DNA of 64,000 bases, taken from positions 379-64,378 of the forward strand of contig CAZIVR010000007.1 of NCBI GenBank assembly GCA_964542745.1, written 5' to 3'. Of the stretch, positions 12,142 through 50,200 are shown piece after piece (within the stretch, counting starts at the first letter, position 1; each line of letters begins with the position of its first letter). The stretch is from an uncultured bacterium. GTDB taxonomy: Bacteria; Eisenbacteria; RBG-16-71-46. A model generated the notes under the pieces. The model made no database searches, was not told where the DNA came from, and saw only the letters and a program-made list of their open reading frames with translations. A program made the translations under genes and the position numbers.

Positions 12142-14273
<2,132 letters not shown>

Positions 14274-14274
<1 letters not shown>

Positions 14275-31067: not shown

Positions 31068-32270
31068 ATGAAACCCGCCACAGGCGGCACGAGGCCGCGC
31101 CTGGGCCCCATCGAGCGGCCCGATTCCCACGACAGCGATCGTCGCCGGTTCCTCCTCGCTGCAGGAGGAGCCGCGGTCTATTGCGCGCTCGGACCCGCGC
31201 TCGCGGCCGCCGAGAAGCTTCCCGACACGCGCCCCGGGCTCCAGCCGTGGTCGCTGCCCGGCGACCTGCCCGCCAACCCGGTGGACGCCGCGCGCGCGCT
31301 GATCGGGGCCGCGGTGCTCGCCCCGAGCGACTGGAACACGCAGCCCTGGCGCTTCGAGGTGGACGGGAACCTGATCCGGGTCGTCGCCGACGCGCGCCGG
31401 GCGCTCTCGGTCACGGACCCCGAACGCCGCGGCATGATGATCGGCCTCGGCGCCGCGCTCGAGAACATGCTGATCGCGGCCCGCGCGTGGGGTCAGCGGC
31501 CTTCGGTCCAGTACCTGCCCCACGAGGGCGCCCGCGGCGTGGTGGCCGAGGTCTCGTGGATGGGCGGCGAGGCGCGCCGCGACCGGGCGCTGTTCGAGGC
31601 CATCCCCGCGCGCCGCACCAACCGCCGGGACTTCGACGAGCGCGGCATCTTCCCGCAGAACCGCTCGCTGCTGATGGCCGAGGCGATGGAAGGGCTCGAG
31701 TTCCACTGGCTCGACGACCCCGAGCGCATGCGCTCGGTGGCCGACCTCGCCTACGAAGCGACGCGCGCCCAGGTGGGCGACGGCCGGGCCCAGGCCGAGC
31801 AGTTCTCGTGGATGCGCTTCGACGGCGACGAGAAGCGGCGTGGCGACGGCGTGCCGGTCGGGGCGCTCGAACTCTCCGGCCCCGCCGGCTGGCTCGCCGG
31901 CCGCTACTTCCGGCCCGGAAGCTGGTTCGCGCGCTTCGGCACCGAGTACGCCGCCAAGCAGGCGCGCTCCCAGGTGAAGAGCGCGGGCGCGCTGCTGCTG
32001 GTCTCCGCGCCGAGGAAGGACGACACCCAGTGCCTGCTGTGCGGGCAGAGCTACGAGCGCCTCGCGCTCAAGGCCACCCACCTCGGGATCGCGAACCAGA
32101 TCCTGAGCGCGCCGGTCGAGGTGGCCCGCCTGCGGCCCGACCTGCGCCGGGCGTTCCGCGCCCCCGCGGGGAACGAGCCGCTGCTGCTGGTCCGGCTCGG
32201 CCACGCCCGCACCCCGGAGCCCGCCCCGCGCCGCGCGGTCAGCGTGGTCGCGACCTTCCGCAACACCTAG
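31068..32270 (+). CDS. Tat-exported nitroreductase-family protein (Acg-like)
   Basis: Tat signal DRRRFLLAAGGAAVYCAL. The nitroreductase fold is duplicated (WNTQPWRFEVDGN...). 400 aa. Confidence 0.6.
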   Translation: MKPATGGTRPRLGPIERPDSHDSDRRRFLLAAGGAAVYCALGPALAAAEKLPDTRPGLQPWSLPGDLPANPVDAARALIGAAVLAPSDWNTQPWRFEVDGNLIRVVADARRALSVTDPERRGMMIGLGAALENMLIAARAWGQRPSVQYLPHEGARGVVAEVSWMGGEARRDRALFEAIPARRTNRRDFDERGIFPQNRSLLMAEAMEGLEFHWLDDPERMRSVADLAYEATRAQVGDGRAQAEQFSWMRFDGDEKRRGDGVPVGALELSGPAGWLAGRYFRPGSWFARFGTEYAAKQARSQVKSAGALLLVSAPRKDDTQCLLCGQSYERLALKATHLGIANQILSAPVEVARLRPDLRRAFRAPAGNEPLLLVRLGHARTPEPAPRRAVSVVATFRNT

Positions 32271-32411: not shown

Positions 32412-32427
32412 TAGGTATACCTAGGTA
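32412..32427. promoter_or_regulatory. AT-rich composite palindrome TAGGTATACCTAGGTA, about 110 bp upstream of the decahaem cytochrome gene. Candidate operator or promoter element.
   Basis: The perfect 12-bp palindrome TAGGTATACCTA overlaps the 10-bp palindrome TACCTAGGTA. The element is conspicuously AT-rich for a ~72% GC genome. Confidence 0.35.
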
Positions 32428-32534
32428 GCATTTCGGCCCTCACCGGTTCCGTCCAAGGTTCCAGGCGAACGGAACTCCCACGCGCGGTCCGGCCGCCTCG
32501 CCGGCCACGACGGGGGAGACGGTGGAGGTGGAGG

Positions 32535-33455
32535 ATGCGACGAGGACTGGTGGTGGCGGGCGCCCTGCTCGGCGCCTCGCTGTTGTCCATGACCGCGGCG
32601 CGGGCGCCCGACTCGCAGCCCGCCGCGACGCTCGCCGGCTCGGAGTCGTGCGAGGAGTGTCACGCCAACGCCTACAAATCCTGGATGCGCGGCTCGCACG
32701 GGCGCGCCAGCCGGGATTCCGTGCTGACCGGCGCCTCGGTGAGCTGCGAGTCCTGCCACGGGCCGGGCTCGCTTCACGTGGCGGCCGACAACGACCGCGA
32801 CGATCCCGGCTTCGACACCATGAAGAAGTTCGCCCGCATGCCGCAGGACGAGGCGAACGCGACCTGCCTGACCTGCCACAACACCGGCGAGCAGTTCTAC
32901 TGGGAGCACAGCTCCCACGAGCGCAAGGGCGTGCGGTGCGTGGACTGCCACTCCATGCACGACGCGCACGATCCCGGGGCCGCGGCCCAGCTCCAGACCG
33001 CGCGGGCCAGCGACCAGTGCCTCAAGTGCCACCTCTCGAAGAAGCTGCAGACGTCGAAGTCGGCGCACATGCCGCTGCGGGAGGGCGGGATGGAGTGCTC
33101 GAGCTGCCACAACCCGCACGGGGCCGCGGCGCCGAAGCAGCTTCGCGCCGCCTCCACCAACGAGCTGTGCGAGAGCTGCCACGCCGACAAGCGCGGGCCG
33201 ATGCTGTGGGAGCACGCGCCGGTGCGCGAGGACTGCACCACGTGCCACGAACCCCACGGCGCCAACAACGACAAGCTCCTGACCGGAAAGAAGCCGTTCC
33301 TGTGCCAGCGCTGCCACATCGCGACGCGGCACCCGAGCAACCTCTACGACTTCCCCGACCTGGCCAGCAACCGGCTCAACAACCGGTCGTGCACCAACTG
33401 TCATTCGCAGATCCACGGCTCCAACCACCCGTCAGGGAAGTTCTACCTGAGGTAG
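32535..33455 (+). CDS. Periplasmic decahaem c-type cytochrome, MtrA/DmsE/PioA/MtoA family
   Basis: Ribosome-binding site GGAGGTGGAGG. Signal peptide. Ten CXXCH motifs in 306 aa (CEECH, CESCH, CLTCH, CVDCH, CLKCH, CSSCH, CESCH, CTTCH, CQRCH, CTNCH). This number and spacing fits MtrA-type decahaems. Confidence 0.85.
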   Translation: MRRGLVVAGALLGASLLSMTAARAPDSQPAATLAGSESCEECHANAYKSWMRGSHGRASRDSVLTGASVSCESCHGPGSLHVAADNDRDDPGFDTMKKFARMPQDEANATCLTCHNTGEQFYWEHSSHERKGVRCVDCHSMHDAHDPGAAAQLQTARASDQCLKCHLSKKLQTSKSAHMPLREGGMECSSCHNPHGAAAPKQLRAASTNELCESCHADKRGPMLWEHAPVREDCTTCHEPHGANNDKLLTGKKPFLCQRCHIATRHPSNLYDFPDLASNRLNNRSCTNCHSQIHGSNHPSGKFYLR

Positions 33456-33464
33456 GAGACGGCC

Positions 33465-35600
33465 ATGTCATCGAGAATCGGAACGTTCGGAGCGGCGGCG
33501 GTCCTGGCCGCCGCGCTGTGGGCCGGCGCCGGGCATGCGGCCGGCGAGAACCACGCCACCTTCGGCAGCCGATGGTGGACGCAGACCGCGCCCGAGGCGA
33601 CCTACCGCGAGTACGTGGACCTTTCGCGCGGCGGGTACCTCGAGTCCTTCCTGGTCCGGGAGTGGAACGCCGACAACGCGCTCGTCCTGAGCGGCGAAAA
33701 CGCGCTGCGCGGGGACCAGTCCACGCGGCTCGCGCTCGCGCGCGGCGTGCGCTGGCGGCTCGAGGTGCGGAACGACCAGATCCCGCACCTCTTCAGCCCG
33801 GTGACGCGCTCCCTCTACACCGAGACCTCGCCCGGCGTGTTCCGCCTGCCCGATTCGCTGCAGGCGCGCAACCAGTCGTTCCCGGGCAACTACGGAACCA
33901 TCATGTCGGACGCGCTGCGGCACGCCTCGCGGGTCGAGGCGGGCTTCCGCACCGAGATCTCGACGGTGCGCCTGCGCTCGCGCCCGGCGCCCGGCTGGCG
34001 CTTCGAGCTGAACGGGGAGCGCCGCGACCGCTCGGGATACAAGGCGATCGGCGCCCCGTTCGGGTTCAGCACCGCGATCGAGATGCTGGAGCCGATCCAG
34101 CAGCAGACGCGGACCGGTTCGGCCACCGCGACCTACCAGCGCGGTGCGGCCAAGGTCGCGGCCACGGTCGGCCTGTCCACGTTCCGCAACCGGGTGGGCG
34201 AGCTGGTCTGGGACAACCCGAAGCGCCTGACCGACCGCAGCGCCTCGGCCGACGACGCCTCTTCGCAGGGACAGCTGGACCTCGCCCCCGACAACCGCCT
34301 GGTGAGCGGGCAGGTGGCGCTCGGCTACCGGCTGCCGCGCCGGACCACGTTCTCGGCCACCGTCGGCGCGAGCCAGGGAACCCAGGACGACGCGTTCCTC
34401 CCGTTCACCATCAACAGCGCGATCGCCCAGCGCTCGCTGGACTCGCTGCCCGCGCGCAGCCTCGACGGCAAGCGGGTCAGCGTGCGGCAGGACTACCGGC
34501 TCACCACGCGGGCGTGGCCGGGCGTGAGCGGAACGCTGCGCTTCCACTCGTCGCACGTGGACAACCAGACGCCGGAGCTGTCCTTCATCGGCGGGGTGCG
34601 CGGCGACCAGTCGTTCTCGCGGGGCGAGCGCAAGAACCACCCGTACGGGCACACGCACAGCGTGCTGGGCGCCGACCTCGACTTCCGGGTCGCCGGCCCG
34701 CTCGGCGTGGGCGTGCTGGTGGAGCGGCGCACGCGCGACCGGACCTTCCGCGAGATCGAGAAGGACGACGAGAACGTGTTCGGCGCGCACGCGAGCGCCG
34801 ACCTGACCGACGACCTGAGCCTGTCCGCCAACGTCCGCGTCGCGGAACGCACGCTCGACGCGTTCCACGACTCGGACTACAAGAACGCCGCGGGCGTCTT
34901 CATCGAGCAGCCCAAGCTGCGCCGGTTCGACGTCGCCAACCGCAAGCAGACCGCGGGCGGCGCGGACGTGTCCTGGCAGCCGGTCCGCTGGTTCGGCGTG
35001 GACGCGCAGTACGGCTACCAGCTGAACGACTTCCCGGACTCCCGCTACGGCCTCGGGCGCGAGGAGCAGCACCTGGTGGTGACCGAGGCCACGCTGCGCC
35101 CGCGGCCGCGCGTGGCGCTGAGCGGGGGCTACGGCTTCGGGCAGGCCGAGACCGAGCAGAACTCGAACGAGACCAACGCCAGCGCGCCGCCCACCGACGA
35201 CGCGGCCACCGACTGGACCGCCACGATCAAGGACCGCAACGTCTACGTGTTCGGGAACGCCGAGTGGTGGGCCATCGAGCGCCGGCTGGCGTTCACCGCC
35301 GCCTACGAGTTCACGCGCGCGCTCGGCGACTACCGCTTCCGGCTGACCCCGAGCGTGTCGCTGCCCACCACGCTGTACCGCCGGCACGACGCGCAGCTCG
35401 GCGCGCGCTGGCGCCTCCAGCACTCGACCGAAATCGGCGGCCGCTGGTCCTACGAGGAGTACGACGTCACCGACGTCCTGAACGAGAACATTCCGCTGTT
35501 GCAGTTCACCGGCACCTCGGCGACCGCGATCTACCTGGGCGACAGTCACCAGGACTACCGGGCGCATCGTCTCGAAGTCCTCGCCACGCGCCGCTTCTGA
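33465..35600 (+). CDS. Decahaem-associated outer-membrane porin, MtrB/PioB/MtoB family
   Basis: The gene lies immediately downstream of the decahaem gene (9-nt gap). Signal peptide. A 711-aa beta-barrel with amphipathic strand periodicity that ends in Phe (ATRRF). Confidence 0.7.
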   Translation: MSSRIGTFGAAAVLAAALWAGAGHAAGENHATFGSRWWTQTAPEATYREYVDLSRGGYLESFLVREWNADNALVLSGENALRGDQSTRLALARGVRWRLEVRNDQIPHLFSPVTRSLYTETSPGVFRLPDSLQARNQSFPGNYGTIMSDALRHASRVEAGFRTEISTVRLRSRPAPGWRFELNGERRDRSGYKAIGAPFGFSTAIEMLEPIQQQTRTGSATATYQRGAAKVAATVGLSTFRNRVGELVWDNPKRLTDRSASADDASSQGQLDLAPDNRLVSGQVALGYRLPRRTTFSATVGASQGTQDDAFLPFTINSAIAQRSLDSLPARSLDGKRVSVRQDYRLTTRAWPGVSGTLRFHSSHVDNQTPELSFIGGVRGDQSFSRGERKNHPYGHTHSVLGADLDFRVAGPLGVGVLVERRTRDRTFREIEKDDENVFGAHASADLTDDLSLSANVRVAERTLDAFHDSDYKNAAGVFIEQPKLRRFDVANRKQTAGGADVSWQPVRWFGVDAQYGYQLNDFPDSRYGLGREEQHLVVTEATLRPRPRVALSGGYGFGQAETEQNSNETNASAPPTDDAATDWTATIKDRNVYVFGNAEWWAIERRLAFTAAYEFTRALGDYRFRLTPSVSLPTTLYRRHDAQLGARWRLQHSTEIGGRWSYEEYDVTDVLNENIPLLQFTGTSATAIYLGDSHQDYRAHRLEVLATRRF

Positions 35601-35679
35601 ACGGAAGCCGCGGGCGGGCGAACCCCGCCGGGATCCCGGGCGGCGAACCCCCCGGGACCCGGCGAACGAAGGAGAAGCC

Positions 35680-36063
35680 ATGAAGTCTGCCCCGATCTTC
35701 ATCCCGATGGCCGTCGCCGCGGTGCTCGCCGTGTTCGCCGCCGCGCCCAAGGACAGCGCCACGGCCGGCAAGGACCTGTTCCTCCAGTACAAGTGCAACT
35801 CCTGCCACACGCTCAAGGCGCACGCGATCGTGAAGCAGGCGGACGCCGAGGAGGAGGAGGCCAAGGAGGGCGACCGCAAGCCGCCCGATCTCTCCGGGGC
35901 CGGGAAGAAGCGCACCGCCGAGTGGATCGGCAAGTACATGCTCAAGACGGTGGACAACGACGGCGAGAAGCACCGCAAGAAGTTCAAGGGCACCGAAGCC
36001 GAGCTGAAGACGCTCGCCGCCTGGCTCGAGTCGCTCAAGGGCGAGAAGAAAGCGGCGAAGTGA
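35680..36063 (+). CDS. Monohaem class-I cytochrome c (MtoD-like periplasmic electron shuttle)
   Basis: Signal peptide. A single CNSCH haem motif. A candidate Met ligand (KYML). 127 aa. Ribosome-binding site GGAGAAG. Confidence 0.75.
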   Translation: MKSAPIFIPMAVAAVLAVFAAAPKDSATAGKDLFLQYKCNSCHTLKAHAIVKQADAEEEEAKEGDRKPPDLSGAGKKRTAEWIGKYMLKTVDNDGEKHRKKFKGTEAELKTLAAWLESLKGEKKAAK

Positions 36064-36070
36064 GCCGGCG

Positions 36071-36769
36071 ATGAACTTCCTGGTGCCGCTGCTCGCGCTG
36101 CTCGGCATCGCGCTGGTCCTGGTGCTGGCCGTGGTCGCCCGGCCCCAGGCCACGCGCCAGCCGAGCGGCAGGATCCTGGCGTTCGTCGCGATCTTCCTGC
36201 TGCCCGCGCTCGCGCTGTGGATGGGCGTGGACGCCCACGTCGAGCAGGCCAAGCAGCGCAGCTTCTGCCTGTCGTGCCACGTGATGGAGCCGTACGGCAA
36301 GAGCCTCTACGTGGACGACGACGAGTACGTACCGGCCGCGCACTTCCAGAACAACCGCGTGTCGCGCGAGAAGGCCTGCTACACGTGCCACACCAGCTAC
36401 GCGCTGTTCGGGGACGTCGAGTCGAAGCTGCGCGGGCTGCGGCACCTGATGGTCTACTACTCGGGCAGCCTGCCCGACACCATCCGCCTCTACACCCCCT
36501 ACAACAATCGCGAGTGCCTGCACTGCCACTCCGGGGCGCGGCGCTTCGAGAAGCACCGGAACCACCACGAGGCCGACACCACCATGGCGGCGATCAAGGC
36601 GAACCGGCTGTCGTGCATGACCTCCGGCTGCCACGACGTGATCCACGACGTCCACAACCTCGCCGACGCCGACCTGTGGGACGAGAGCAAGCCGGCCTAC
36701 GTGCGCCCGAAGCCGGCCCACGACGCGGACGCGGCGAACGGCGAGGGCGGCGAGGAGCACGCGCCATGA
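36071..36769 (+). CDS. NapC/NirT/CymA-family membrane-anchored tetrahaem cytochrome c (quinol dehydrogenase)
   Basis: N-terminal TM anchor (LVPLLALLGIALVLVLAVV). Three CXXCH motifs (CLSCH, CYTCH, CLHCH) plus one atypical CX4CH (CMTSGCH). Confidence 0.75.
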   Translation: MNFLVPLLALLGIALVLVLAVVARPQATRQPSGRILAFVAIFLLPALALWMGVDAHVEQAKQRSFCLSCHVMEPYGKSLYVDDDEYVPAAHFQNNRVSREKACYTCHTSYALFGDVESKLRGLRHLMVYYSGSLPDTIRLYTPYNNRECLHCHSGARRFEKHRNHHEADTTMAAIKANRLSCMTSGCHDVIHDVHNLADADLWDESKPAYVRPKPAHDADAANGEGGEEHAP

Positions 36770-36996
36770 GCCCCGGCGCCCCGAACATCGAGCGCCGCCT
36801 GCGCGCGGCCGGGCTGCTGGTGGCGGCCGGGCTGGTGATCGAGGCCGCGAGCCTGCTGTGGAAGCACCCGCTCTCGTTCATCCTGTTCGCGATCGCCGTG
36901 CCGCTGCTGATGCTGGGCGGGATCGCGATGTTCCTGCTCTCGCTGGCGAGGGAAGGCGGGGCGGTCCCCCCGCGCGGGGACGGCGACGCCGCGTAG
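36766..36996 (+). CDS. Small two-helix membrane protein, translationally coupled (ATGA) to the NapC/CymA-like cytochrome gene
   Basis: 76 aa. Two hydrophobic helices (LLVAAGLVIEAASLLW; FILFAIAVPLLMLGGIAMFLLSL). Confidence 0.45.
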   Translation: MSPGAPNIERRLRAAGLLVAAGLVIEAASLLWKHPLSFILFAIAVPLLMLGGIAMFLLSLAREGGAVPPRGDGDAA

Positions 36997-37080: not shown

Positions 37081-38463
37081 TCAGCTGCCGCTGACCGTCA
37101 TCTCCGAGATCAGGAGCGTGGGGCTCGAGACCGAGCCGTCGAGGTCGAGGTCGTTGCCCACCGCGACCACGTTCTTCAGCATCTCGAGCGACGTCGAGGC
37201 CACGGTCACGCCTTCCACCGGCCGGACCTTCTCGCCCTTCTCGATCCAGTGGCCCTGCGCCTGGAAGGAGTAGTCGCCGGTCACGTTGTTGAAGCCGAAG
37301 GAGCCCTGGTCGTCCATCAGGAACCCGCGGTCCACGCGGCGCAGGATCGCGTCCGGGGAGTCGGCGCCCGCCTCGAGGTAGAGATTGCCGTGGCCGATCG
37401 AGGGGGTCGAGCCGTAGCCGCGCACGGCGCTGGCGGTGGAGCGCGTCCCGGCGCGGCGGGCGTGGTAGGCGTCGTAGCAGAACATCGCGCAGCGGCCGCG
37501 GTCCACGAGCACGTTGCGGCGGCTCGCCACGCCGTCGCCGTCCACCGGCGAGGAGCCGGCGCCGCGCGGCATCAGGCCGTCGTCCACCAGCGTCACGAGG
37601 GGGGAGGCCACGGTCTCGCCCAGCTTCTCGCTCAGCCACGAGGAGCGCTTGATCACGCTCTCGCCGCTGAAGGCGTCGAACATCTCGGCGATCCAGCCCG
37701 CCGCGATGTCGGGATGGAGGATGACCGGCACGCGGGCGGTGGGAACCGGGCGCGCGCCGAGCCGCGACACCGCGCGGCGCGCCGCCTCGGCGGCGATCGC
37801 CTCGGCGGGCGGCAGGTCGGCGAGCCAGCGGCGGCTGCGCCCGTAGCCGCCGCTCTGCTGCTTGCCCGCGCCTTCGTCGGCGAGCGCCACCACGTAGGCG
37901 CCGATCGAGGTGGCCGAGTAGCCGCGGCGGAGTCCCGCGGAATTGGCGATCACGAACTGGCCGTCGCGGCTGCTCACGCCCACCGAGTCGGTGCGGCGCA
38001 CGCGCGGATCGTAGGCGAGCGCCAGCCGCTCCAGTTCGAGCGCGAGCGCGATCTTGCGCTCGGCCGGGAGCTCGACCACCGCCGGGTCGAACAGCGCGAG
38101 GTCGGCGGGAGGATCGCCGGCCTCGTCCGGGGTCACGACCCCGTTCCACGCGTCGGGCGTCGAGAAGCGGGCCAGCGCCACCGCCTGGCGGGCGAGGTTC
38201 TCGAGCGATTCGGGGCGCAGGTCGGTGCTCGACACGAATCCCTCGGCGCCGCCCACGAACACGCGCAGGCCGAGTCCGCGCGTCGCGCTCTGCTTGAGCG
38301 ACTCGATCGCGCCGTCCGAAACCTTGACCTTGAACGCCCGGGCGCTCTCGAGGCACGCCTCGGCCTGGTCGGCCCCGGCGCGCCGCGCGCGCGCGAGCAC
38401 GTCCTCGGCGACGTCGAACAGCGCGCGGTCCACCCGCTCGTCGGCGACGATCCCGGCGCTCAC
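37081..38463 (-). CDS. pmbA: PmbA/TldE (peptidase U62 family; modulator of DNA gyrase / microcin-processing partner)
   Basis: The U62 fold is homologous to the upstream TldD. The GTG start overlaps the tldD stop codon (GTGA). The 985-aa track ORF 37081..40038 is this gene plus an out-of-frame junk extension across tldD. Confidence 0.75.
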   Translation of the reverse strand: MSAGIVADERVDRALFDVAEDVLARARRAGADQAEACLESARAFKVKVSDGAIESLKQSATRGLGLRVFVGGAEGFVSSTDLRPESLENLARQAVALARFSTPDAWNGVVTPDEAGDPPADLALFDPAVVELPAERKIALALELERLALAYDPRVRRTDSVGVSSRDGQFVIANSAGLRRGYSATSIGAYVVALADEGAGKQQSGGYGRSRRWLADLPPAEAIAAEAARRAVSRLGARPVPTARVPVILHPDIAAGWIAEMFDAFSGESVIKRSSWLSEKLGETVASPLVTLVDDGLMPRGAGSSPVDGDGVASRRNVLVDRGRCAMFCYDAYHARRAGTRSTASAVRGYGSTPSIGHGNLYLEAGADSPDAILRRVDRGFLMDDQGSFGFNNVTGDYSFQAQGHWIEKGEKVRPVEGVTVASTSLEMLKNVVAVGNDLDLDGSVSSPTLLISEMTVSGS

Positions 38464-39902
38464 GTGGCGGTCCCCCCGACCGTGATCTCCGTGAAGCGCA
38501 CGGTCGGCTGGCCCACGCCCACCGGCTTCCACTGGCCGTCCTTGCCGCACGAGCCGGTGGTGCCGTCGATCGCGAGGTCGTTGGCCACCGCGTCGATCTT
38601 GAGCATCGCGTCGTTGCCGTTGCCCGCGAGCGTGGCGTTGCGGACCGGATGGGTGAGGCGCCCCTTCTCGATCGCCACCGCCTCGGTGACCTGGAACGAG
38701 AAGTTGCCGTCGGCCGGGTTCACCGAGCCGCCGCCCAGGGCCTTGCAGTAGAGGCCGCGCTCGACGCCCGCGATCAGGTCGCCCGGATCGTGCGGACCCG
38801 GCTCGATGTAGGTGTTGGTCATCCGGCACAGCGGGAACTCGCGGAAGCTCGAGCGGCGGCCGTTGCCGGTCGGGCGGTGGCCCGTGAGGCGGGCGTTGAG
38901 GAGGTCCCACATGTAGCCGGTGAGGATGCCGTCCTCGACCAGCACCGTGCGCTGCGCCGGCGTGCCCTCGTCGTCCACGCGGAACGAGCCGCGGCTGTGC
39001 GGGACGAGCCCCGAGTCCACGATCGTCACGCCCTTCGCGGCCACCGCCTCGCCGAGCTGCGTGGCGCGGATCGAGGTCTTCCGGCGGATGGTGTCGCCCT
39101 CCATGCTGTGGCCGAAGCACTCGTGCACCATGACGCCGCCCCAGCCCGGCGCGACCACCACCGGGTAGGAGCCGGCCTCGGGCTCGCGGGCCGAGAGCAG
39201 CGTGACCGCGCTCGCCGCCGCCTGGTCGGCGACCTGCTCGGGCGTGCGCACGCGGTCGAAGTAGTCGGCCTCGACCGAGCCGCCCGCGGCGGCGAAGCCC
39301 GACTGGCGTTCGGCGCCCTCGATCGCGAGCGCGGTCACGGTGAGCCGAGTCAGGTAGGTGCGGTCCTCGGCCCACAGCCCGTCGCTGTTCGCGACCACGA
39401 AGCTCTTGGAGGCGTCGGCGAGGCCGACCCACACCTCGTGGACGCGCGGGTCGTGGGAGCGCGCCCGGTCGTTCGCGCGCCGCACCACCGCGATCTTGTC
39501 CTCGGGGAGCCGCGAGGAGGGGAAGGGGGAGCGCAGCGTGAAGGGCGGCGGCGCGTCCACCACCCGGAAGGGGGCCGGGGGGCCGTCGTGGCCACCCGAG
39601 GTCGCGATGCGGGCGGCGACCCGGGCCGCCTCCCGCAGGTCGGCCGGGTCGAAGCCGTCGGCGAAGGCATAGCCGGTCTGTCCGGCCGCGATCGCGCGGA
39701 TCCCGACCCCCTGCGCGACCTGGTAGGACGAGGTGCGCAGCCGGTTCTCTTCGAAGTGGAAGCCGGTGTGGACGGTGTGCTCGCCGAACACCTCGGCGAA
39801 TTCGGCGCCCTTCGAGCGGGCGATGCGGATCAGCTCCTCCACCAGCTCGCGGGGGAGCTGGCCGGCCAGCGGGCCGCCGGAGGTCTCGGTATTGGGGGTC
39901 AT
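38460..39902 (-). CDS. tldD: TldD metalloprotease (peptidase U62)
   Basis: The conserved motif HECFGHSMEGD (HExxxH-like) at about 260 aa and the C-terminal GGGSVNPADGNFSFQVTEA motif. 480 aa. Confidence 0.85.
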   Translation of the reverse strand: MTPNTETSGGPLAGQLPRELVEELIRIARSKGAEFAEVFGEHTVHTGFHFEENRLRTSSYQVAQGVGIRAIAAGQTGYAFADGFDPADLREAARVAARIATSGGHDGPPAPFRVVDAPPPFTLRSPFPSSRLPEDKIAVVRRANDRARSHDPRVHEVWVGLADASKSFVVANSDGLWAEDRTYLTRLTVTALAIEGAERQSGFAAAGGSVEADYFDRVRTPEQVADQAAASAVTLLSAREPEAGSYPVVVAPGWGGVMVHECFGHSMEGDTIRRKTSIRATQLGEAVAAKGVTIVDSGLVPHSRGSFRVDDEGTPAQRTVLVEDGILTGYMWDLLNARLTGHRPTGNGRRSSFREFPLCRMTNTYIEPGPHDPGDLIAGVERGLYCKALGGGSVNPADGNFSFQVTEAVAIEKGRLTHPVRNATLAGNGNDAMLKIDAVANDLAIDGTTGSCGKDGQWKPVGVGQPTVRFTEITVGGTAT

Positions 39903-39992
39903 GGGCGCTCCCGATGGGCCAGCCGTGGCGAGGGAGCGCGCAGTCTATTCGCAGCGGTCCCAGCGCGCAACGTGGCCTGCCGATGTCGCTGT

Positions 39993-40037
39993 TGACCAAA
40001 AGGTCATCAGTCGAATACATTGTTGACCCAATGGTCA
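39993..40037. promoter_or_regulatory. Tandem palindromic operators TGACCAAAAGGTCA (39993-40006) and TGACCCAATGGTCA (40024-40037). The second overlaps the tetR start codon.
   Basis: Two TGACC-N4-GGTCA inverted repeats 31 bp apart, immediately 5' of a TetR-family gene. Confidence 0.6.
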
Positions 40038-40723
40038 CAAAAGAACATGCGGGAGCGAACCCGAGCGAAAGGCCGCAGGCGAATCACTCGCCGGTTCCTC
40101 GCTGGCGTCGCCGCAAGAGCGCCCGCCCGGCAGAGCTCGTGGACGCCGCCCTCGCGGTCTTCGTCGAGCGCGGCTACGCCGCCACGCGCCTCGCCGACGT
40201 GGCCCGGCACGCCGGGGTCACGAAGGGCACGCTCTACCTCTACTTCGACAACAAGGAAGCGCTCTTCAAGGCGATGGTGCGCGACCGGATCGTGGCCCAC
40301 CTCGCCGCGACCGAGCAGCTGGTCGAGGAGTTCGAGGGCGACGCGCGCGACATGTTCGTGCTGCTCATGGAACGCTGGTGGGCGCGGGTCGTCGAGGGGC
40401 CGATGTCCGGGCTCGCGAAGCTGGTGGTGGCCGAGGTCGGCACCTTTCCCGATCTCGCGCGCTTCTACCACGACGAGGTGGTGAGCCGGAGCCTCAAGCC
40501 CTTCGAGCACGCGCTCCGCCTCGGCATGGCCCGCGGCGAGTTCCGCCGCGTGGACCCGGCGATGGCGGTGCGGCTCACGGTCGCTCCCATGATGATGGCC
40601 GCGCTCTGGCAGCAGACGTTCGCGCGCTGCGTCGAGGGCGCCTACGTGGAGCCGAGGAAGTACTTCGAGACCCACGTGGACCTGCTGCTGGCCGGGCTGA
40701 CGGCGCCTCCCGCGCGCTCCTGA
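40031..40723 (+). CDS. TetR/AcrR-family transcriptional regulator
   Basis: N-terminal helix-turn-helix (AATRLADVARHAGVTKGTLYLYFDNKEALF). The start was chosen at the ATG inside the operator. The track ORF starts at 39914. Confidence 0.75.
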   Translation: MVTKEHAGANPSERPQANHSPVPRWRRRKSARPAELVDAALAVFVERGYAATRLADVARHAGVTKGTLYLYFDNKEALFKAMVRDRIVAHLAATEQLVEEFEGDARDMFVLLMERWWARVVEGPMSGLAKLVVAEVGTFPDLARFYHDEVVSRSLKPFEHALRLGMARGEFRRVDPAMAVRLTVAPMMMAALWQQTFARCVEGAYVEPRKYFETHVDLLLAGLTAPPARS

Positions 40724-41146: not shown

Positions 41147-41321
41147 CCCGGCCTGCCCGGACGTGCAGCCGGCGTTCGGCACGGTCCGGCGGCTGGCTCG
41201 AAAACTCCTCCCTAGGTCGCTCCCGGTCCGGATGCTAGACTCGCTCCTCCGAAACGTGCCATTCACACCCCCATCCGGCGGCTATCCCCCAGCCATCGCC
41301 CACGCCGGGAGACCGTTCATC

Positions 41322-44135
41322 ATGCGTCGCATCTCGCTCGTGCTCGCGGTGGCGTTGCTCGCGTGCGGCCTCCTCGCCGCGCCGCGCTTCCTGATTTCCC
41401 GCGGCACCGGCGCCTCCGACTTCGTGCATTTCGAGTCGCCCCACGTTCACCCCGCCGACCTGACCCCGGCGCGGAACCGGCTGCTCGTGGTGAACACCCC
41501 CGACAACCGGCTCACGGTCTTCAACGTGACCGACAGCCTTCCCACGCGGGAGGCCGAAATCTTCGTCGGCCTCGAGCCGGTCTCGGTGCGCGCGCGCAAC
41601 GACAGCGTCGCGTGGGTCGTGAACCACCTCTCCGACGACGTGAGCATCGTCAACCTCAACACGATGCACGTGAAGGCGACCCTGCGCGTCGGCGACGAGC
41701 CCGGCGACGTGGTGTTCGCGGGCAGCCCGACGCGCGCCTACGTGAGCGTGGGCGGCGAGGACGCGATCAAGATCTACGACCCCGACAACCTGGCCACGCC
41801 GCCCACCGTGATCGCGCTCTCCGGGAGCGAGCCGCGCGCGCTGGCCCGGACCGCCGACGGGAGCAAGGTCTACGTGACGCTCTTCCAGTCGGGCAACCAC
41901 TCCACGCTGCTGAGCCCGCAGAAGCTGCCGCCCGACTCGGTCCCGGAGGACTTCGACCTCCCGATGGACCCGGGGCTGCCGGCCGCGCCGCACGTCGGGC
42001 TCGTGGTCCAGTCGCAGACCGGCGGGAACTGGTACGACATGTACGGCAACCTCTGGAACCACCACATCAAGTACGCGGTGCTGGAGCGCGACGTGATCGA
42101 GATCAACACCTCGACACAGGCGGTGGCGCGCACCTTCGGCAACTGGGGGAGCAACATCTTCGGCGTGGACGTGAGCCCCACCGACTCGCGCATCTCGTAC
42201 GTCGGCACCGAGGCGCGCAACCTGCTGCGGTTCGAGCCGCGCATCCTCGGCTACACGGTCGAGACCAATGCGGTGTTCGTGAATCAGGCCACCGGCGTCT
42301 CGACGCTGAGAAAGCTCAACCCGCACATCGATTTCGACACATCGCCCGGCACCCAGGCCGAGCACGACTCGGCGCTCGGCATCCCGACGGCGGTGGCGTT
42401 CTCGAGCGCCGGGAACCGCGCCTACGTCGCGGCGTTCGCCAACAACCGGATCGGCGTCCTGAATCCCGCCGGGGGCGCGGCGAGCACGATCCTCGGCCGC
42501 GTCCCGTGCGCCCCCGGGCCCTCGGGCATCGTGGTGGACGATCCCAACAACCGCCTGTTCGTGGTGGGGCGCTTCCACAACGAGCTCCAGGTGCTGTCGT
42601 CGTCGGACTTCCGCTCGATCTCGCGCCAGTGGATCGGCTTCGACCCGACGCCGGACCCGATCGTCAACGGGCGGAAATTCATGTACGGCGGGTTCACCTC
42701 GTCGCACGGCGACCAGGCGTGCGCCAGCTGCCACGTCTTCTCGGACACCGACGGCCTGGCGTGGGACCTCGGCGACCCGAACGGCGCCTTCGAGCCTCCG
42801 GGCGGGAGCCCGCCGGGCCTGCAGGGCTTCCACCCGATGAAGGGCCCGCTCGTGACCCAGACGCTGCGCGGCATGTCGGGAGTGGGCCCGCTCCACTGGC
42901 GTGGCGACCGCGTGAATCTCGCGGCGTTCAACAACGCGTTCCTCACCCTGCTCGGCCGCTCCGCGCCGCTCGCCGACAGCCAGATGACCGCGCTCGCCGA
43001 CTTCGCGATGCCGCTCGTCTTCCCGCCCAACCCGCGCCAGAACCTCGACCGCAGCATGCCCGACGCCCCCCCGGGCCAGGGGAGCGCGCTGCGCGGGCAG
43101 AACTTCTTCATGAACACGGTCGTGGACAGCGGGATGACCTGCTCGGACTGCCACTCGGCCGCGTCGTTCGGCCCGGGCACCAACGGCATGATGGTGCGCG
43201 CGGCGCACATCGGCCAGTCGCAGGACCTCAAGGTTCCGCAGCTGCGCAACCTCTACAAGAAGACCAATTTCCTCGACGTGCCCGGGGCGCAGAACAAGCG
43301 CGGGTTCGGTTACACGCACGACGGATCGGTGGACCTGACCTCGAAGTTCAACCACGGGCCGGGCTTCTCGTTCGGCCCCGACTCCGCGACGGCCGCCGAC
43401 AACCGGCGCGACCTCGAGGCGTACCTCTACGCGTTCGACACGGGGCTCGCACCCGCCGTCGGCTACCAGCTCACCTTCCACGGAACCAACAACTCCGACC
43501 CGACCGCGCTGTCGCGCCTCGACACCCTGACCGCGCAGGTCACGGCCGGAAACTGCGATCTCGTGGCGCACGGCCGCGTGGGAGGGCAGCCGCGCGGCTG
43601 GCAGTACGTGGGCAGCGGCGAGTGGAAGCCCGACAAGGCGGCCGAGACCAACGTGACGACGGCCGCGCTCGTGGCGCTGGCCGGGCTCGGCAGCGAGCTC
43701 ACGGTGACCGGCGTCCCGGGGGGCAGCGGGCTCCGGATGGGGCTCGATCGCGACCGCGACACCTACTTCGACGGCGACGAGCGCGACGCGGGAAGCGACC
43801 CGGGCAACCCGGCCTCGACGCCGCTCAACGTGAGCGTGACCCCGCGGGGCGCGGGCGCCACGCGACTCGGCACGATCGGGCCCAACCCGTTCCGCGGCTC
43901 CACCGAGGTGGGCTTCGCGCTGGCCCGCGCCGGGCGCGTGGACCTCGAGGTCTTCGACGTGCTCGGCCGCCAGGTCCGCACCCTCGCGCGCGGACGCTGG
44001 TACGAGGCCGGCACGCAGAGCCTGCGCTGGGACGGCCGCGCCGACGACGGGCGGGACGCGAGGGCGGGCGTCTACTTCGTGAGGCTTCGGACCGAAGCGG
44101 GACAGTGGTCCAGGCCGGTGGTCCGCGTGCGGTAG
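41322..44135 (+). CDS. Secreted YVTN-type beta-propeller fused to a di-haem cytochrome-c-peroxidase (CCP/MauG-like) domain, ending in the shared C-terminal sorting-type domain (paralogue A)
   Basis: GGGAGA ribosome-binding site. Signal peptide (MRRISLVLAVALLACGLLAAP). YVTN-like repeats (LLVVNTPDNRLTVFNV...). Two CXXCH motifs (CASCH, CSDCH) about 140 aa apart, with CCP hallmark motifs (PQLRNL...GFGYTHDGS). C-terminal tail (GPNPFRGST...VFDVLGRQVRTL...WDGRADDGRDARAGVYFVRL...RVR). Confidence 0.75.
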   Translation: MRRISLVLAVALLACGLLAAPRFLISRGTGASDFVHFESPHVHPADLTPARNRLLVVNTPDNRLTVFNVTDSLPTREAEIFVGLEPVSVRARNDSVAWVVNHLSDDVSIVNLNTMHVKATLRVGDEPGDVVFAGSPTRAYVSVGGEDAIKIYDPDNLATPPTVIALSGSEPRALARTADGSKVYVTLFQSGNHSTLLSPQKLPPDSVPEDFDLPMDPGLPAAPHVGLVVQSQTGGNWYDMYGNLWNHHIKYAVLERDVIEINTSTQAVARTFGNWGSNIFGVDVSPTDSRISYVGTEARNLLRFEPRILGYTVETNAVFVNQATGVSTLRKLNPHIDFDTSPGTQAEHDSALGIPTAVAFSSAGNRAYVAAFANNRIGVLNPAGGAASTILGRVPCAPGPSGIVVDDPNNRLFVVGRFHNELQVLSSSDFRSISRQWIGFDPTPDPIVNGRKFMYGGFTSSHGDQACASCHVFSDTDGLAWDLGDPNGAFEPPGGSPPGLQGFHPMKGPLVTQTLRGMSGVGPLHWRGDRVNLAAFNNAFLTLLGRSAPLADSQMTALADFAMPLVFPPNPRQNLDRSMPDAPPGQGSALRGQNFFMNTVVDSGMTCSDCHSAASFGPGTNGMMVRAAHIGQSQDLKVPQLRNLYKKTNFLDVPGAQNKRGFGYTHDGSVDLTSKFNHGPGFSFGPDSATAADNRRDLEAYLYAFDTGLAPAVGYQLTFHGTNNSDPTALSRLDTLTAQVTAGNCDLVAHGRVGGQPRGWQYVGSGEWKPDKAAETNVTTAALVALAGLGSELTVTGVPGGSGLRMGLDRDRDTYFDGDERDAGSDPGNPASTPLNVSVTPRGAGATRLGTIGPNPFRGSTEVGFALARAGRVDLEVFDVLGRQVRTLARGRWYEAGTQSLRWDGRADDGRDARAGVYFVRLRTEAGQWSRPVVRVR

Positions 44136-47212: not shown

Positions 47213-50200
47213 GTGATTCGCGCGCCGCGCCGTGCCGGGATCCTCGCCGCCGTCCTGCTGCTCACCGCTTCGGCCGCGCACGCGGGGCGCGGCGCGTTCG
47301 CCTCGGATCCGGCCGCGCCGCTCTGGAGTGCCCCCGGCGCCCCGGTCGCGGGACTCCCGGCCGGCGCCGCGTTCCCGGGCTCGCTCACCGGTGCCACGCC
47401 TTCCGCATGCGACGGCTGGCTGCCGAACCGCGGACAGATCGCGGACGGGCACGGGCAGGTGGCGAGGGACGTGCTCTTCGCCACCCGTTTCCCCGGCGGT
47501 CGCGTCTACCTCACCACGCGCGGGTTCACGCACCTGTTCACGTCGCGGGTGGGCGAGGAGGAGCCCAAGGTCGCGGGCCGCGAGCGGAAGCGGCCGCCCT
47601 CCCGGCTCGTGGAGTGGAGCCGGCTCGACCTCGAGCTGGTGGGCGCCACGATCCGTCCCGAGGCCGCCGTGCCGGGCCGGGTGCGGGCCGACCGCGGCGT
47701 GTCGCACTTCTACCTGCCGCACTGCCCGGACGGTGTCCTCGACGTTCCTTCCTACGGCGAGGTGGTGCTGCGCGAGGTGTATCCGGGCGTGGACTGGGTG
47801 GTGCGGGGCGACGCGGAGACCGGCGCGCACCACGACTTCGTGGTGAAGCCGGGCGGCGACCCCGCGCGGATCCGCTTCGAGATCTCGGGCGCCACCGCGA
47901 TCGAGCTCTCGCCCGACGGCCGCGGGCTCACGCTTCGCACCGCGCTCGGCGACGTGCGCGAAGGGGCGCTGCTCTGCACCCAGGGCGAGGGGAAGCGGCC
48001 GGTGGCGGCGCGCTTCCGGCTCGAGGGCCGCACGCTGTCGTTCGACGTCGGCGACTACGACCGCGCCGAGCCGCTGGTGATCGACCCGCCGATGGTGTGG
48101 TCCACCTATTTCGGCGGCGAGGACTTCGACGGCCCCAACACCGTCGTCTGCGACAACGCCTCGGGCTCCGTGTACGTGGTCGGCTACACCGCCTCCGACA
48201 CGCTCCAGACGCTGGCGGGCGGTTACTACCAGGGCGTGATGGGCGGCTCGGTGGACGGCCTGATCCTCAAGTTCAGCCAGCTCGGGGCGCTGCAGTGGGC
48301 CACGTACTACGGAGGCGGCGGCGGGGACTACTGCACCGACGCCGCGCTCGATCCTTCCGGCAACCTGTTCGTTTCGGGAGGGACGGGATCGAGCAACTTC
48401 CCGGTGCAGTTCCTCTCGGGCGCCTACAACCAGCTCACCACCGGCGGCGGGCAGGACGGGTTCTTCCTCAAGTTCAACTCGCTGGGCGCGCGGCAGTGGG
48501 CCACGTACTACGGCGGGAGCGGCGACGACCAGGCCAACGGGATCGCGTGCGATCCGAACGGCAAGCTCTACGCGTGCGGGCAGGCCATGTCCACCGACCT
48601 GCCGCTCCAGAACCCGGGCGGGGGCGCCTTCATGGACCTCACGCGCGGCGGCAGCGAGGACGCCTTCGTGGCGCGCTTCGGCACGCTGCACTCGCTCGAG
48701 TGGGCCACCTACGTGGGCGGGGACTCGCTCGAGAACGCGGCGGGGATCACCGTGAACGCGGGCCGGCTCTACGTGACCGGCTACACGTGGTCCCCGGACT
48801 TCCCGCTGCTCGACCCGCTGGGCGGCGCCTACTTCCAGCCCACGCTCGCCAGCGGCCAGGACGCCTTCTTCACCCAGTTCACGCCGGCCGGCGTGCTCAC
48901 CTGGTCCACCTTCTACGGCGGGGACGACCTCGACACCGCCAACGACCCGGTGATCCTGCCGAACGGCAACGTGACGATCCTCGGCTTCAGCAAGTCCACC
49001 GATCTCCCCACCTGGTTCCTCGGGGGCGCCTACAACGTCGCGGCGCTCTCGGGCGGGTTCGACCTCTACCTCGCCGAGTTCACGCCGGGCGGCGTCCCGG
49101 TGTGGGGCACCTACTTCGGGGGCAGCGGCGACGACTGGCTGATCCGCGGCGAGGGCAAGCCGATCACCGTGAGCGCCGCGGGCGAGGTGGTGATCACCGG
49201 CGTCACCGCGTCGAGCGACTTTCCCACGCTGAACCCGGGCGGCGCCTACTTCGACAACACGTGGGGGGGCGGAACGGACGCGATCCTCGCCCGCTTCCTG
49301 CCGACGCGCGCGCTCTCGTGGTCCACCTACCTCGGCACCACCTCCACCGACTTCGGCAACGGCGTGGCCTTCGGCACCGGCGGCTGCCTGTTCGCGACCG
49401 GCGAGTCGTGGGAGTACGGGTCGTTCCCGATCGTGAATCCCGGGCTCGGCGCGCTGGTGGACTCCACCAACCACGGCATCGACGACATCTACGTCACCAA
49501 GTTCTGCACCCCGAATTCGGCGTGCTGCCAGGACTTCACCTGCGTGCCGGCGCTGTCGCAGGCGCACTGCTTCAGCATGGGCGGCACCGCGTTCTATCCC
49601 AACCAGCCCTGCGCGAACGTGTCGTGCACGATCCTGTGCACGATCTGCGGGAAGAAATTCCACGACCTGAACCGGAACGGCGTGCAGGACTCGGGCGAAC
49701 CCGCGCTCGCGGGCTGGACCCTCGAGCTCTACTACCCGAACGGGCCGCTCTACGCGACCACGGTCACCGACGGCTCGGGCAACTACTGCTTCAGCGCGAT
49801 CCCGTGCGGCACGTGGGAGGTGCGCGAGCGCAACCAGTCCGGCTGGGTCGCGACCGCCCCGGCCGGCGGTGTCCACAGCGTCACGCTCGGCACCGGCTCC
49901 ACCCAGAACGGCGTCAACTTCGCCAACTTCGGATGCGCGCCCTCCACGCCCTGCATCCCGTCCCCCTCGTGGCTCGCGGCGTGGTGGCCGCTCGGCGACG
50001 GCCCGGGCTCATCCGTGGCGGCCGACGCCGCGCACCTCGATCCGGCCCGGAACGTGGCGCAGCTCGAGGGCGGGGCGTCGCTCGACTCGACGTCGCTCGG
50101 CGTCGCGACCGCGGCCGACGGCGCGCGCGTGCCGCACGCGGGCCAGCTCGGCCTCGACTTCGGCGACGGATCGTTCTCGATCGCCGCGTGGCTCCGGGCC

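Follow-up and report, generated by a model that had tools for sequence, protein, structure and literature searches.

A five-gene cluster for a probable MtrAB/MtoAB-type trans-envelope electron conduit in an uncultured Eisenbacteria genome

The closest described counterparts of the system treated here are gene clusters that pair a decahaem cytochrome with an MtrB-type outer-membrane barrel. In Sideroxydans, the Mto cluster comprises MtoA, MtoB, a monohaem cytochrome (PmcA/MtoD), and ImoA, which carries the motif CXXCHXM (PMC13390432). NrfH and ImoA (the Sideroxydans "CymA") share this motif, and CymA lacks it; one N-terminal transmembrane segment is given as a hallmark of the NapC/NirT proteins (PMC13390432). 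CymA homologues have been reported in Proteobacteria only (review, PMC6295460), and MtrAB homologues in Acidobacteria, Gemmatimonadetes, Rokubacteria, Aquificae, and Zixibacteria (PMC8805035, PMC10654088, PMC9769843); Eisenbacteria are listed among the taxa with iron-cycling genes in a FeGenie-based survey (PMC8478452). Here, we describe a cluster of five genes in a 64,000-nucleotide stretch of DNA from an uncultured member of the Eisenbacteria (contig CAZIVR010000007.1, positions 379 to 64,378; hereafter, the whole stretch is called the window). Our literature search found no paper linking Eisenbacteria to MtoA, and none of the Eisenbacteria papers that it returned discusses an Mtr-type cluster in that phylum. 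To our knowledge, Candidatus Eisenbacteria has no cultured member. An original prediction, made from the letters of the window alone, had held that such modules are described mainly in Proteobacteria; the surprise is smaller than that wording implies, because MtrAB homologues are documented in other phyla and Eisenbacteria proteins already bear the MtrB/PioB name.

The cluster consists of the following genes:

32535-33455, + strand: decahaem cytochrome gene (306 amino acids, signal peptide, ten CXXCH motifs)
33465-35600, + strand: barrel gene (711 amino acids, signal peptide, C-terminal Phe, no Cys)
35680-36063, + strand: monohaem cytochrome gene (127 amino acids, signal peptide, a single CXXCH, CNSCH)
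36071-36769, + strand: inner-membrane NapC/NirT-family tetrahaem cytochrome gene (232 amino acids, three CXXCH motifs plus CMTSGCH)
36766-36996, + strand: small membrane-protein gene (76 amino acids, two hydrophobic helices)

We read the cluster as a single operon that specifies a trans-envelope electron conduit of the MtrAB/MtoAB type, and we put the probability that the encoded hardware connects the quinone pool to the outside of the cell at roughly 85%. The layout is that of an operon: the five tightly spaced, co-directional open reading frames (ORFs) of the original prediction were all recovered on the + strand, with intergenic distances of 9, 79, 7, and -4 bp. The last of these values reflects an ATGA stop/start overlap between the tetrahaem gene and the small gene. 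Each gene is preceded by a Shine-Dalgarno sequence, a strong one (GGAGGTGGAGG) in the case of the decahaem ATG. The G+C content at third codon positions (GC3) is 0.86-0.97 in the cluster genes, similar to the remainder of the window, where overall G+C is 70-78%. Recent horizontal transfer of the cluster was considered and rejected: its composition matches that of the host, which makes such a transfer unlikely, and the barrel belongs to an Eisenbacteria-specific clade. A scan of the 64 kb for CXXCH found the motif in the three cytochrome genes of the cluster and in a few unrelated ORFs; it revealed no further multihaem ORF within the window. The nearby TldD protein (38460-39902, - strand) shares 74-83% identity with proteins that carry the name Candidatus Eisenbacteria or Eiseniibacteriota, one of which is encoded on the contig of a related locus, L001. 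An Rfam scan of the window returned no matches, and a terminator scan returned sites at chance level only.

The decahaem cytochrome scores 254 bits on the NCBIfam model TIGR03508 (DmsE/MtrA family; cut-off 192.2) and covers profile positions 1-258 of 258. The family assignment first proposed is upheld above the cut-off, with the correction that the matching model is TIGR03508 and not TIGR03507. A motif scan confirms the predicted signal-peptide protein with ten CXXCH motifs in 306 amino acids, a density that cannot be chance. Residues 4-23 form an N-terminal hydrophobic segment, after which comes ARA; its Pfam domains are Paired_CXXCH_1 and related ones, and 7902 homologues were found at E ≤ 1e-10. 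Against the Protein Data Bank (PDB), the sole strong match is chain A of 6R2Q, the MtrA of the Shewanella baltica MtrCAB complex (E 1.2e-60), and all ten CXXCH motifs align with the haem motifs of that protein. The claim that the cytochrome sides with porin-associated relatives also held: a grouping with the partners of periplasmic nitrite reductases was not seen, as NrfB- and NrfH-type models reach no more than about 50-56 bits, where the porin-associated family gives 254. The protein falls below the cut-off of the Geobacter Pcc (GSU2203-type) model NF041028 (232 versus 325 bits). It is a c-type cytochrome of the MtrA/MtoA/DmsE family, predicted to be periplasmic and barrel-inserted, and it would thread its barrel in the manner of 6R2Q (PMC7198977).

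The barrel protein starts 9 bp downstream of the decahaem gene and ends in Phe, as originally proposed, and it matches the MtrB_PioB family along its full length: Pfam PF11854 scores 256 bits against a gathering score of 23 (residues 70-710, profile positions 35-634 of 635). The second family model gives a more qualified answer. On NCBIfam TIGR03509, the match is strong and nearly full length (207.3 bits, E 4e-61) yet lies under the cut-off of 240.05 bits, so that by the NCBI threshold the protein would count as a divergent member. Proteins 37-43% identical to it, from Eisenbacteria metagenome-assembled genomes (MAGs), are labeled "MtrB/PioB family" by NCBI; the next named group of relatives is from Acidobacteria, at 28% identity. 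Inside Eisenbacteria, the clade has diversified to 36-63% identity. An AlphaFold model (AF2), built from 95 homologues, is of high confidence (predicted local distance difference test 93.1, predicted template-modeling score 0.86) and depicts an all-beta protein with alternating short turns and long loops. The predicted barrel of at least 26 strands agrees with this model, which has the MtrB fold and about 26-28 long strands (28 DSSP segments of at least 7 residues, two pairs of these short). When the model was compared with the PDB by Foldseek, the top match was MtrB itself (6R2Q_B; E 1e-40, TM-scores 0.83/0.91, root-mean-square deviation 3.1 A); other barrels reached TM-scores of 0.43 at most, with 22-strand TonB-dependent receptors at about 0.4. 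Profile and fold together identify the protein as a predicted outer-membrane sheath of the MtrB/PioB/MtoB family.

The third gene encodes the small class-I monohaem cytochrome that had been anticipated (PF00034, E 1e-7). Among 14 homologues from related loci, His98, in a GEKH motif, is conserved and no Met is, a pattern that suggests His/His ligation of the haem. Compared with all PDB sequences by phmmer, this protein had no match at E ≤ 0.01; three weak matches were returned, none of them MtoD. This comparison presupposes that the solved MtoD structure is in the PDB, which we take to be the case. With no relationship to MtoD detectable by that search, the protein is at most a functional analogue of MtoD. 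From its position, and by analogy with Sideroxydans PmcA/MtoD, it is presumed to be a periplasmic shuttle between the decahaem and the inner-membrane cytochrome (PMC13390432).

The fourth gene, predicted to encode a membrane-anchored NapC/NirT tetrahaem cytochrome, does so with an amended haem count: the protein passes PF03264 (NapC/NirT; 40 bits versus 24.1, residues 36-193, profile positions 9-170 of 174), and its haem sites are three CXXCH and one CX4CH (CMTSGCH). The accompanying description as CymA/NapC-like is right as to the NapC/NirT family; by its CXXCHxM motif the protein is NrfH/ImoA-like and not CymA-like. Its best NCBIfam model is NrfH, at 39 bits versus a cut-off of 134, and it is far under the cut-offs of the NCBIfam equivalogs NrfH, NapC, and TorC; it therefore falls outside all of these named subfamilies. 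When 1.84 billion cluster representatives were searched exhaustively with HMMER, just 521 relatives came up at E ≤ 1e-3, which places the protein in a small, distinct clade.

Across 34 relatives, the residues C66, C69, H70, M72, H91, C103, C106, H107, C149, C152, H153, H165, C182, C187, H188, and H192 are invariant, and K119 is nearly so; the four haem sites, three distal His, and the Met of CXXCHxM are all conserved. The fourth site is CX4CH in the window protein and in many relatives and CXXCH in others, always in the same alignment column. Ahead of haem 1, 33 of the 34 have two hydrophobic segments. The protein is presumed to be a quinol/quinone oxidoreductase at the inner membrane. Some members of the clade are longer: P0260 and P0274 represent NapC-like relatives of 676-688 amino acids with seven CXXCH motifs plus CX4CH, which appear to be tetrahaem modules fused to further haem domains. 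The small protein encoded by the fifth gene has the two hydrophobic helices originally described. It shows no Pfam or NCBIfam family match, and the consensus of its relatives is IERRLRxAG...W.HPLAF.... Translationally coupled to the tetrahaem gene, it is presumably a subunit of the inner-membrane module.

The decahaem/barrel pairing recurs in nine loci (L001-L009). All five genes occur in identical order on a 4.16-Mb contig (L003; decahaem 62% identical), and at least four of the five on a contig from farmland soil (L004; decahaem 76% identical). The genes that flank the cluster in L003, in L004, and in the window are unrelated; this variation between genomes marks the cassette as a conserved unit. 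In L006-L009, the decahaem/barrel pair alone is kept.

Two Eisenbacteria MAGs illustrate a different arrangement. In L001 (8274-12916) and L002 (8167-9799), the decahaem/barrel pair is followed by a gene for a Rieske iron-sulfur protein, and in L002 a cytochrome b gene comes after that. L001 has genes for a 9-haem and a 17-haem cytochrome downstream, the latter with a NapC/NirT-like N-terminus. Since these genes replace the monohaem/NapC-like/small-protein trio, the inner-membrane end of the system is modular within the phylum. In another relative, L005 (6931-11631), the MtrB-like gene stops at 369 amino acids, with RadC-, VanY-, and unknown small genes behind it, which suggests that mobile or phage-like DNA has inserted into the porin gene, or a misassembly.

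To cover a wider range, metagenome contigs were scanned with a 7-sequence alignment of NapC-like proteins; the scan gave at least 515 matches, from which 80 loci, nearly all from soil, were kept. The NapC-like relatives come overwhelmingly from soil and rhizosphere metagenomes. In 77 of 83 loci, a homologue of the small gene comes after the NapC-like gene; in the other six, the contig stops at or just past the NapC-like gene. Where at least 3.9 kb of upstream sequence was available (23 loci), a ten-CXXCH cytochrome lies upstream of the NapC-like gene in 22. Most of these loci have an intervening ORF of about 800 amino acids with an outer-membrane-type ...RYAF end and no Pfam match. Such Pfam-negative ...RYAF barrels, about 780-900 amino acids long, lie between the decahaem and NapC-like genes in L023, L027, L038, L041, L051, L056, L080, and L089, and a monohaem cytochrome c is encoded between the ...RYAF barrel and the NapC-like gene. 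Profile-profile alignment by hhalign relates the ...RYAF family to the Eisenbacteria barrel (probability 96.5%, E 8e-10, 588 columns); on this basis, the ...RYAF proteins are predicted outer-membrane barrels and probable remote relatives of MtrB/PioB. The five-part architecture is conserved well beyond the lineage of the window, and the two-helix tetrahaem gene with its small partner probably accompanies decahaem/barrel pairs on hundreds of contigs from soil. Because some barrels of the cassette escape detection, surveys that depend on PF11854 or TIGR03509 may undercount conduits.

Upstream of the operon lies one further feature:

32412-32435, + strand: AT-rich island, in which the palindrome TAGGTATACCTA overlaps the conserved 19-mer ATACCTAnGTAGnATTTCG

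The palindrome noticed in the original prediction is a perfect 12-mer at 32412-32423 that ends 112 bp before the decahaem ATG. The window has a single copy of the 19-mer (32417-32435), against a chance expectation of 0.01; L004, the closest relative, has it too, 89 bp ahead of its decahaem gene. There, the left half of the palindrome is not kept; the right half and the bases after it are, and in L004 only. We therefore rejected the palindrome as a conserved operator; in the window itself, it is possibly an operator. In loci further removed, different AT-richer islands contain TAnnnT hexamers, at 95-170 nt upstream. A promoter scan found no full sigma-70 consensus upstream of the operon; TAGCAT in the AT-rich island is probably the -10 region of the promoter and would be followed by a leader of about 100 nt.

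Upstream of the cluster, an Acg-family oxidoreductase that binds flavin mononucleotide (31068-32270, + strand; NF047509, 251 bits versus a cut-off of 199) ends 265 bp before the decahaem gene and is probably exported, given its twin-arginine-type signal (RRRFLL). It was rejected as a conserved partner, as L004 has a Na/Ca exchanger gene upstream instead. Downstream, a PmbA/TldD metallopeptidase pair (37081-39902, - strand) is convergent to the operon and is followed by a divergent gene for a TetR-family regulator (39914-40723, + strand); these genes showed no link to the conduit in the other loci examined. Further on, 4.2 kb downstream of the conduit, is a gene for a 990-residue protein (41163-44135, + strand) with an N-terminal beta-propeller and CXXCH at residues 520 and 660. 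The contexts of these motifs resemble those of di-haem cytochrome c peroxidases, and the C-terminus is a FlgD-Ig sorting tail of the type IX secretion system (T9SS). Two CXXCH motifs are very unlikely by chance, so the protein may be a surface-exported di-haem enzyme. As a conserved partner of the conduit it was rejected, because in L003 the tail alone is shared.

Two features of the window lie at a greater distance. A 1489-residue multidomain protein (47213-51682, + strand) combines DUF7948, SBBP beta-propeller repeats, and SdrD B-like and laminin-G-like domains; it is probably adhesin-like and either secreted or held at the surface. Both it and the 990-residue protein bear FlgD-Ig/T9SS-type C-terminal tails. 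The stretch 12142-16241 (+ strand) encodes a DUF255 thioredoxin-domain protein and, after it, a DsbD-type thiol:disulfide interchange protein. The single CXXCH-like match in each is part of a redox-active Cys motif and not of a haem site. This machinery could serve cytochrome c maturation.

In the mechanism that we propose, the barrel of 26-28 strands would sit in the outer membrane and sheathe the decahaem cytochrome, so that a chain of ten haems would bridge periplasm and cell surface. Within the periplasm, single electrons would be moved by the monohaem cytochrome c. The tetrahaem protein, with its two helices, and the small two-helix protein would make up a four-helix membrane part that exchanges electrons with the quinone pool. 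The components may associate in a physical complex, and the electron chain is expected to be reversible. Sequence fixes neither the substrate nor the direction of flow; a metabolism of iron or manganese is something that we infer.

As to direction, we lean slightly toward uptake, at somewhat short of even odds: in the manner of Mto and Pio, soluble extracellular donors such as Fe(II) would pass electrons through the conduit into the quinone pool. Neither an MtrC/OmcA-type surface cytochrome nor a surface reductase is encoded in the cluster; the outer end of the conduit would therefore meet just soluble or diffusible species at the mouth of the barrel, and it is on this account that the lean is toward uptake. 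PioAB and MtoAB, the characterized MtrAB-type systems in which such a surface component is missing, work oxidatively (PMC6831781, PMC3274759), and homologues of Cyc2-type iron oxidases are reported in Eisenbacteria MAGs (PMC9769843). The parallel in gene content with the Sideroxydans Mto cluster points the same way.

Several points weigh against this reading. The barrel stays under the TIGR03509 cut-off, and the monohaem cytochrome has no detectable relationship to MtoD. The cassette has no high-potential carrier and no link to an oxidase. A gene for an extracellular partner could lie beyond the 64 kb. Published trees of MtrA and MtrB do not split Mto/Pio from Mtr, so homology cannot settle the direction (PMC8805035); in addition, MtrCAB can run backwards, and ImoA can replace CymA as quinol oxidase in Shewanella (PMC13390432, PMC8805035). 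NrfH-type enzymes normally oxidize menaquinol.

Identical hardware with outward flow is a serious competitor, somewhat less probable in our judgment than uptake. The NrfH-like cytochrome would oxidize menaquinol, and electrons would travel by way of the monohaem and decahaem cytochromes to soluble or colloidal acceptors, such as chelated Fe(III), Mn(III/IV), humic quinones, or flavins; the conduit would then be an anaerobic electron sink for a heterotroph in soil microsites. This reading draws on the nearest relative of the tetrahaem protein, NrfH, a menaquinol dehydrogenase whose CXXCHxM and conserved Lys are kept here, on the self-contained nature of a cassette that lacks an oxidase or high-potential link, on the overwhelmingly soil and rhizosphere origin of the relatives, and on the behavior of ImoA, which functions as a quinol oxidase when placed in Shewanella (PMC13390432). 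The Eisenbacteria MAGs of one survey are rich in peptide-degradation genes and are classed with putative heterotrophs, which suits an electron sink as much as uptake, and mtrAB in the MAGs of other phyla is usually interpreted as iron reduction (PMC9769843). What holds it back is the outer end. Neither the cluster nor the 64-kb window encodes an MtrC/OmcA-like or other surface cytochrome, whereas other Eisenbacteria loci have large multihaem genes beside the MtrAB pair. The outward systems known to us (MtrCAB, DmsEFAB, and Geobacter Pcc) all include an extracellular component, which counts against outward flow here.

A missing surface partner could also be supplied from elsewhere. MtrAB-type pairs can serve surface reductases, as DmsEF does, and the pair in the window might likewise feed a cell-surface enzyme encoded at a distance and delivered by type IX secretion. 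The NCBIfam match of the decahaem cytochrome to a "DmsE family" model fits this idea, and the T9SS-tailed di-haem beta-propeller protein at 41163-44135, 4.2 kb downstream, is one candidate for the enzyme. We nevertheless regard the idea as improbable: the convergent PmbA/TldD genes and the TetR gene separate the candidate from the cluster, its counterpart in L003 has just the sorting tail in common with it, and none of the loci examined has a reductase gene adjacent. A similarly small chance, slightly smaller still, attaches to the view that the genes encode no working extracellular conduit and instead serve as a periplasmic redox buffer or a detoxification chain, or persist as an inherited cassette without a current role. 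The sub-threshold TIGR03509 score and the shortened porin gene of L005 would agree with it. Against it, all five ORFs are intact with host-like codon usage, the haem sites and ligands are all conserved, and the barrel clade has diversified within Eisenbacteria (36-63% identity). Moreover, the five-gene architecture is maintained across very distant loci, which points to selection on the whole chain.

A conduit from the quinone pool to the outside, our preferred reading, can be placed against each of the known systems. The original prediction called the arrangement mto-like. This is apt for gene content and fails for the orthology of the accessory parts, as the monohaem cytochrome has no detectable sequence similarity to MtoD and the tetrahaem protein is NrfH/ImoA-like. 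Like the Mto cluster of Sideroxydans lithotrophicus ES-1 (MtoD-MtoA-MtoB-ImoA(CymA_ES-1)-PmcA), the cluster has a decahaem gene followed by an MtrB-type barrel gene, a periplasmic monohaem cytochrome, and no MtrC. The gene order differs, with the monohaem gene here between the barrel and tetrahaem genes; there is one monohaem cytochrome, without detectable similarity to MtoD, where Sideroxydans has two; and Met ligates PmcA, whereas the window protein has no conserved Met. The tetrahaem protein resembles ImoA as a NapC/NirT member with CXXCHxM, a likeness of motif and family and not of directly compared sequences; it differs in its two N-terminal helices, its CX4CH fourth site, and its obligate small two-helix partner, which is not reported for ImoA. 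The hosts differ as well: Eisenbacteria here and Betaproteobacteria there.

The likeness to Shewanella MtrCAB (6R2Q) lies in the alignment of the ten haem motifs with MtrA and in the superposition of the barrel on MtrB. Sequence similarity to MtrB is low (E 6.5e-6, with 16% identity in the structural alignment), and an MtrC/OmcA-type surface decahaem cytochrome was not found in the cluster or the 64-kb window. An N-terminal CXXC is reported for gammaproteobacterial MtrB; the window barrel cannot carry it, because it has no Cys. In contrast to MtrCAB, the inner-membrane partner is encoded within the cluster and is not CymA-like: CymA has four CXXCH motifs, one N-terminal helix, and a haem-1 motif that no Met follows, and the tetrahaem protein departs from it in all three respects. 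PioABC of Rhodopseudomonas palustris TIE-1 shares the MtrC-less decahaem and barrel pair, which there serves electron uptake from Fe(II) (PMC6831781). The window cluster has no ORF for a PioC-type high-potential iron-sulfur protein and encodes a quinone-linked tetrahaem protein instead; the long haem-free N-terminal extension of PioA is absent, the haem domain beginning about 10 residues after the signal peptide. With NrfH, the menaquinol dehydrogenase of the NrfHA nitrite reductase (PDB 2J7A/2VR0), the tetrahaem protein shares CXXCHxM at haem 1 and four haem sites. It differs in its extra N-terminal helix, in haem 4, which has a CX4CH site and a conserved distal His, and in its small membrane partner, and no nrfA lies nearby.

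Two features appear to be undescribed so far: the inner-membrane variant, with its two anchor helices, CX4CH, and obligate small partner, and its systematic linkage to decahaem/barrel pairs, in some of which the barrel escapes Pfam. We advance only tentatively, and at odds well short of even, the further idea that the last two genes are an undescribed quinone-pool module dedicated to MtrAB-type conduits, within a five-gene cassette widespread in soil bacteria. If this is true, the exchange of electrons with the outside would be common, though overlooked, among uncultured lineages that abound in soil, Eisenbacteria included. For a role of Eisenbacteria in the redox cycling of iron and humic substances in soil, an intact link between quinone pool and cell surface offers a concrete hypothesis that can be tested. 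Set beside Mto, Mtr, Pio, and NrfH, the core system introduces no new principle and is of a known kind; what is gained is its distribution and an accessory variant, a two-helix tetrahaem cytochrome with a small subunit, which widens the catalog of inner-membrane partners for MtrAB-type conduits.

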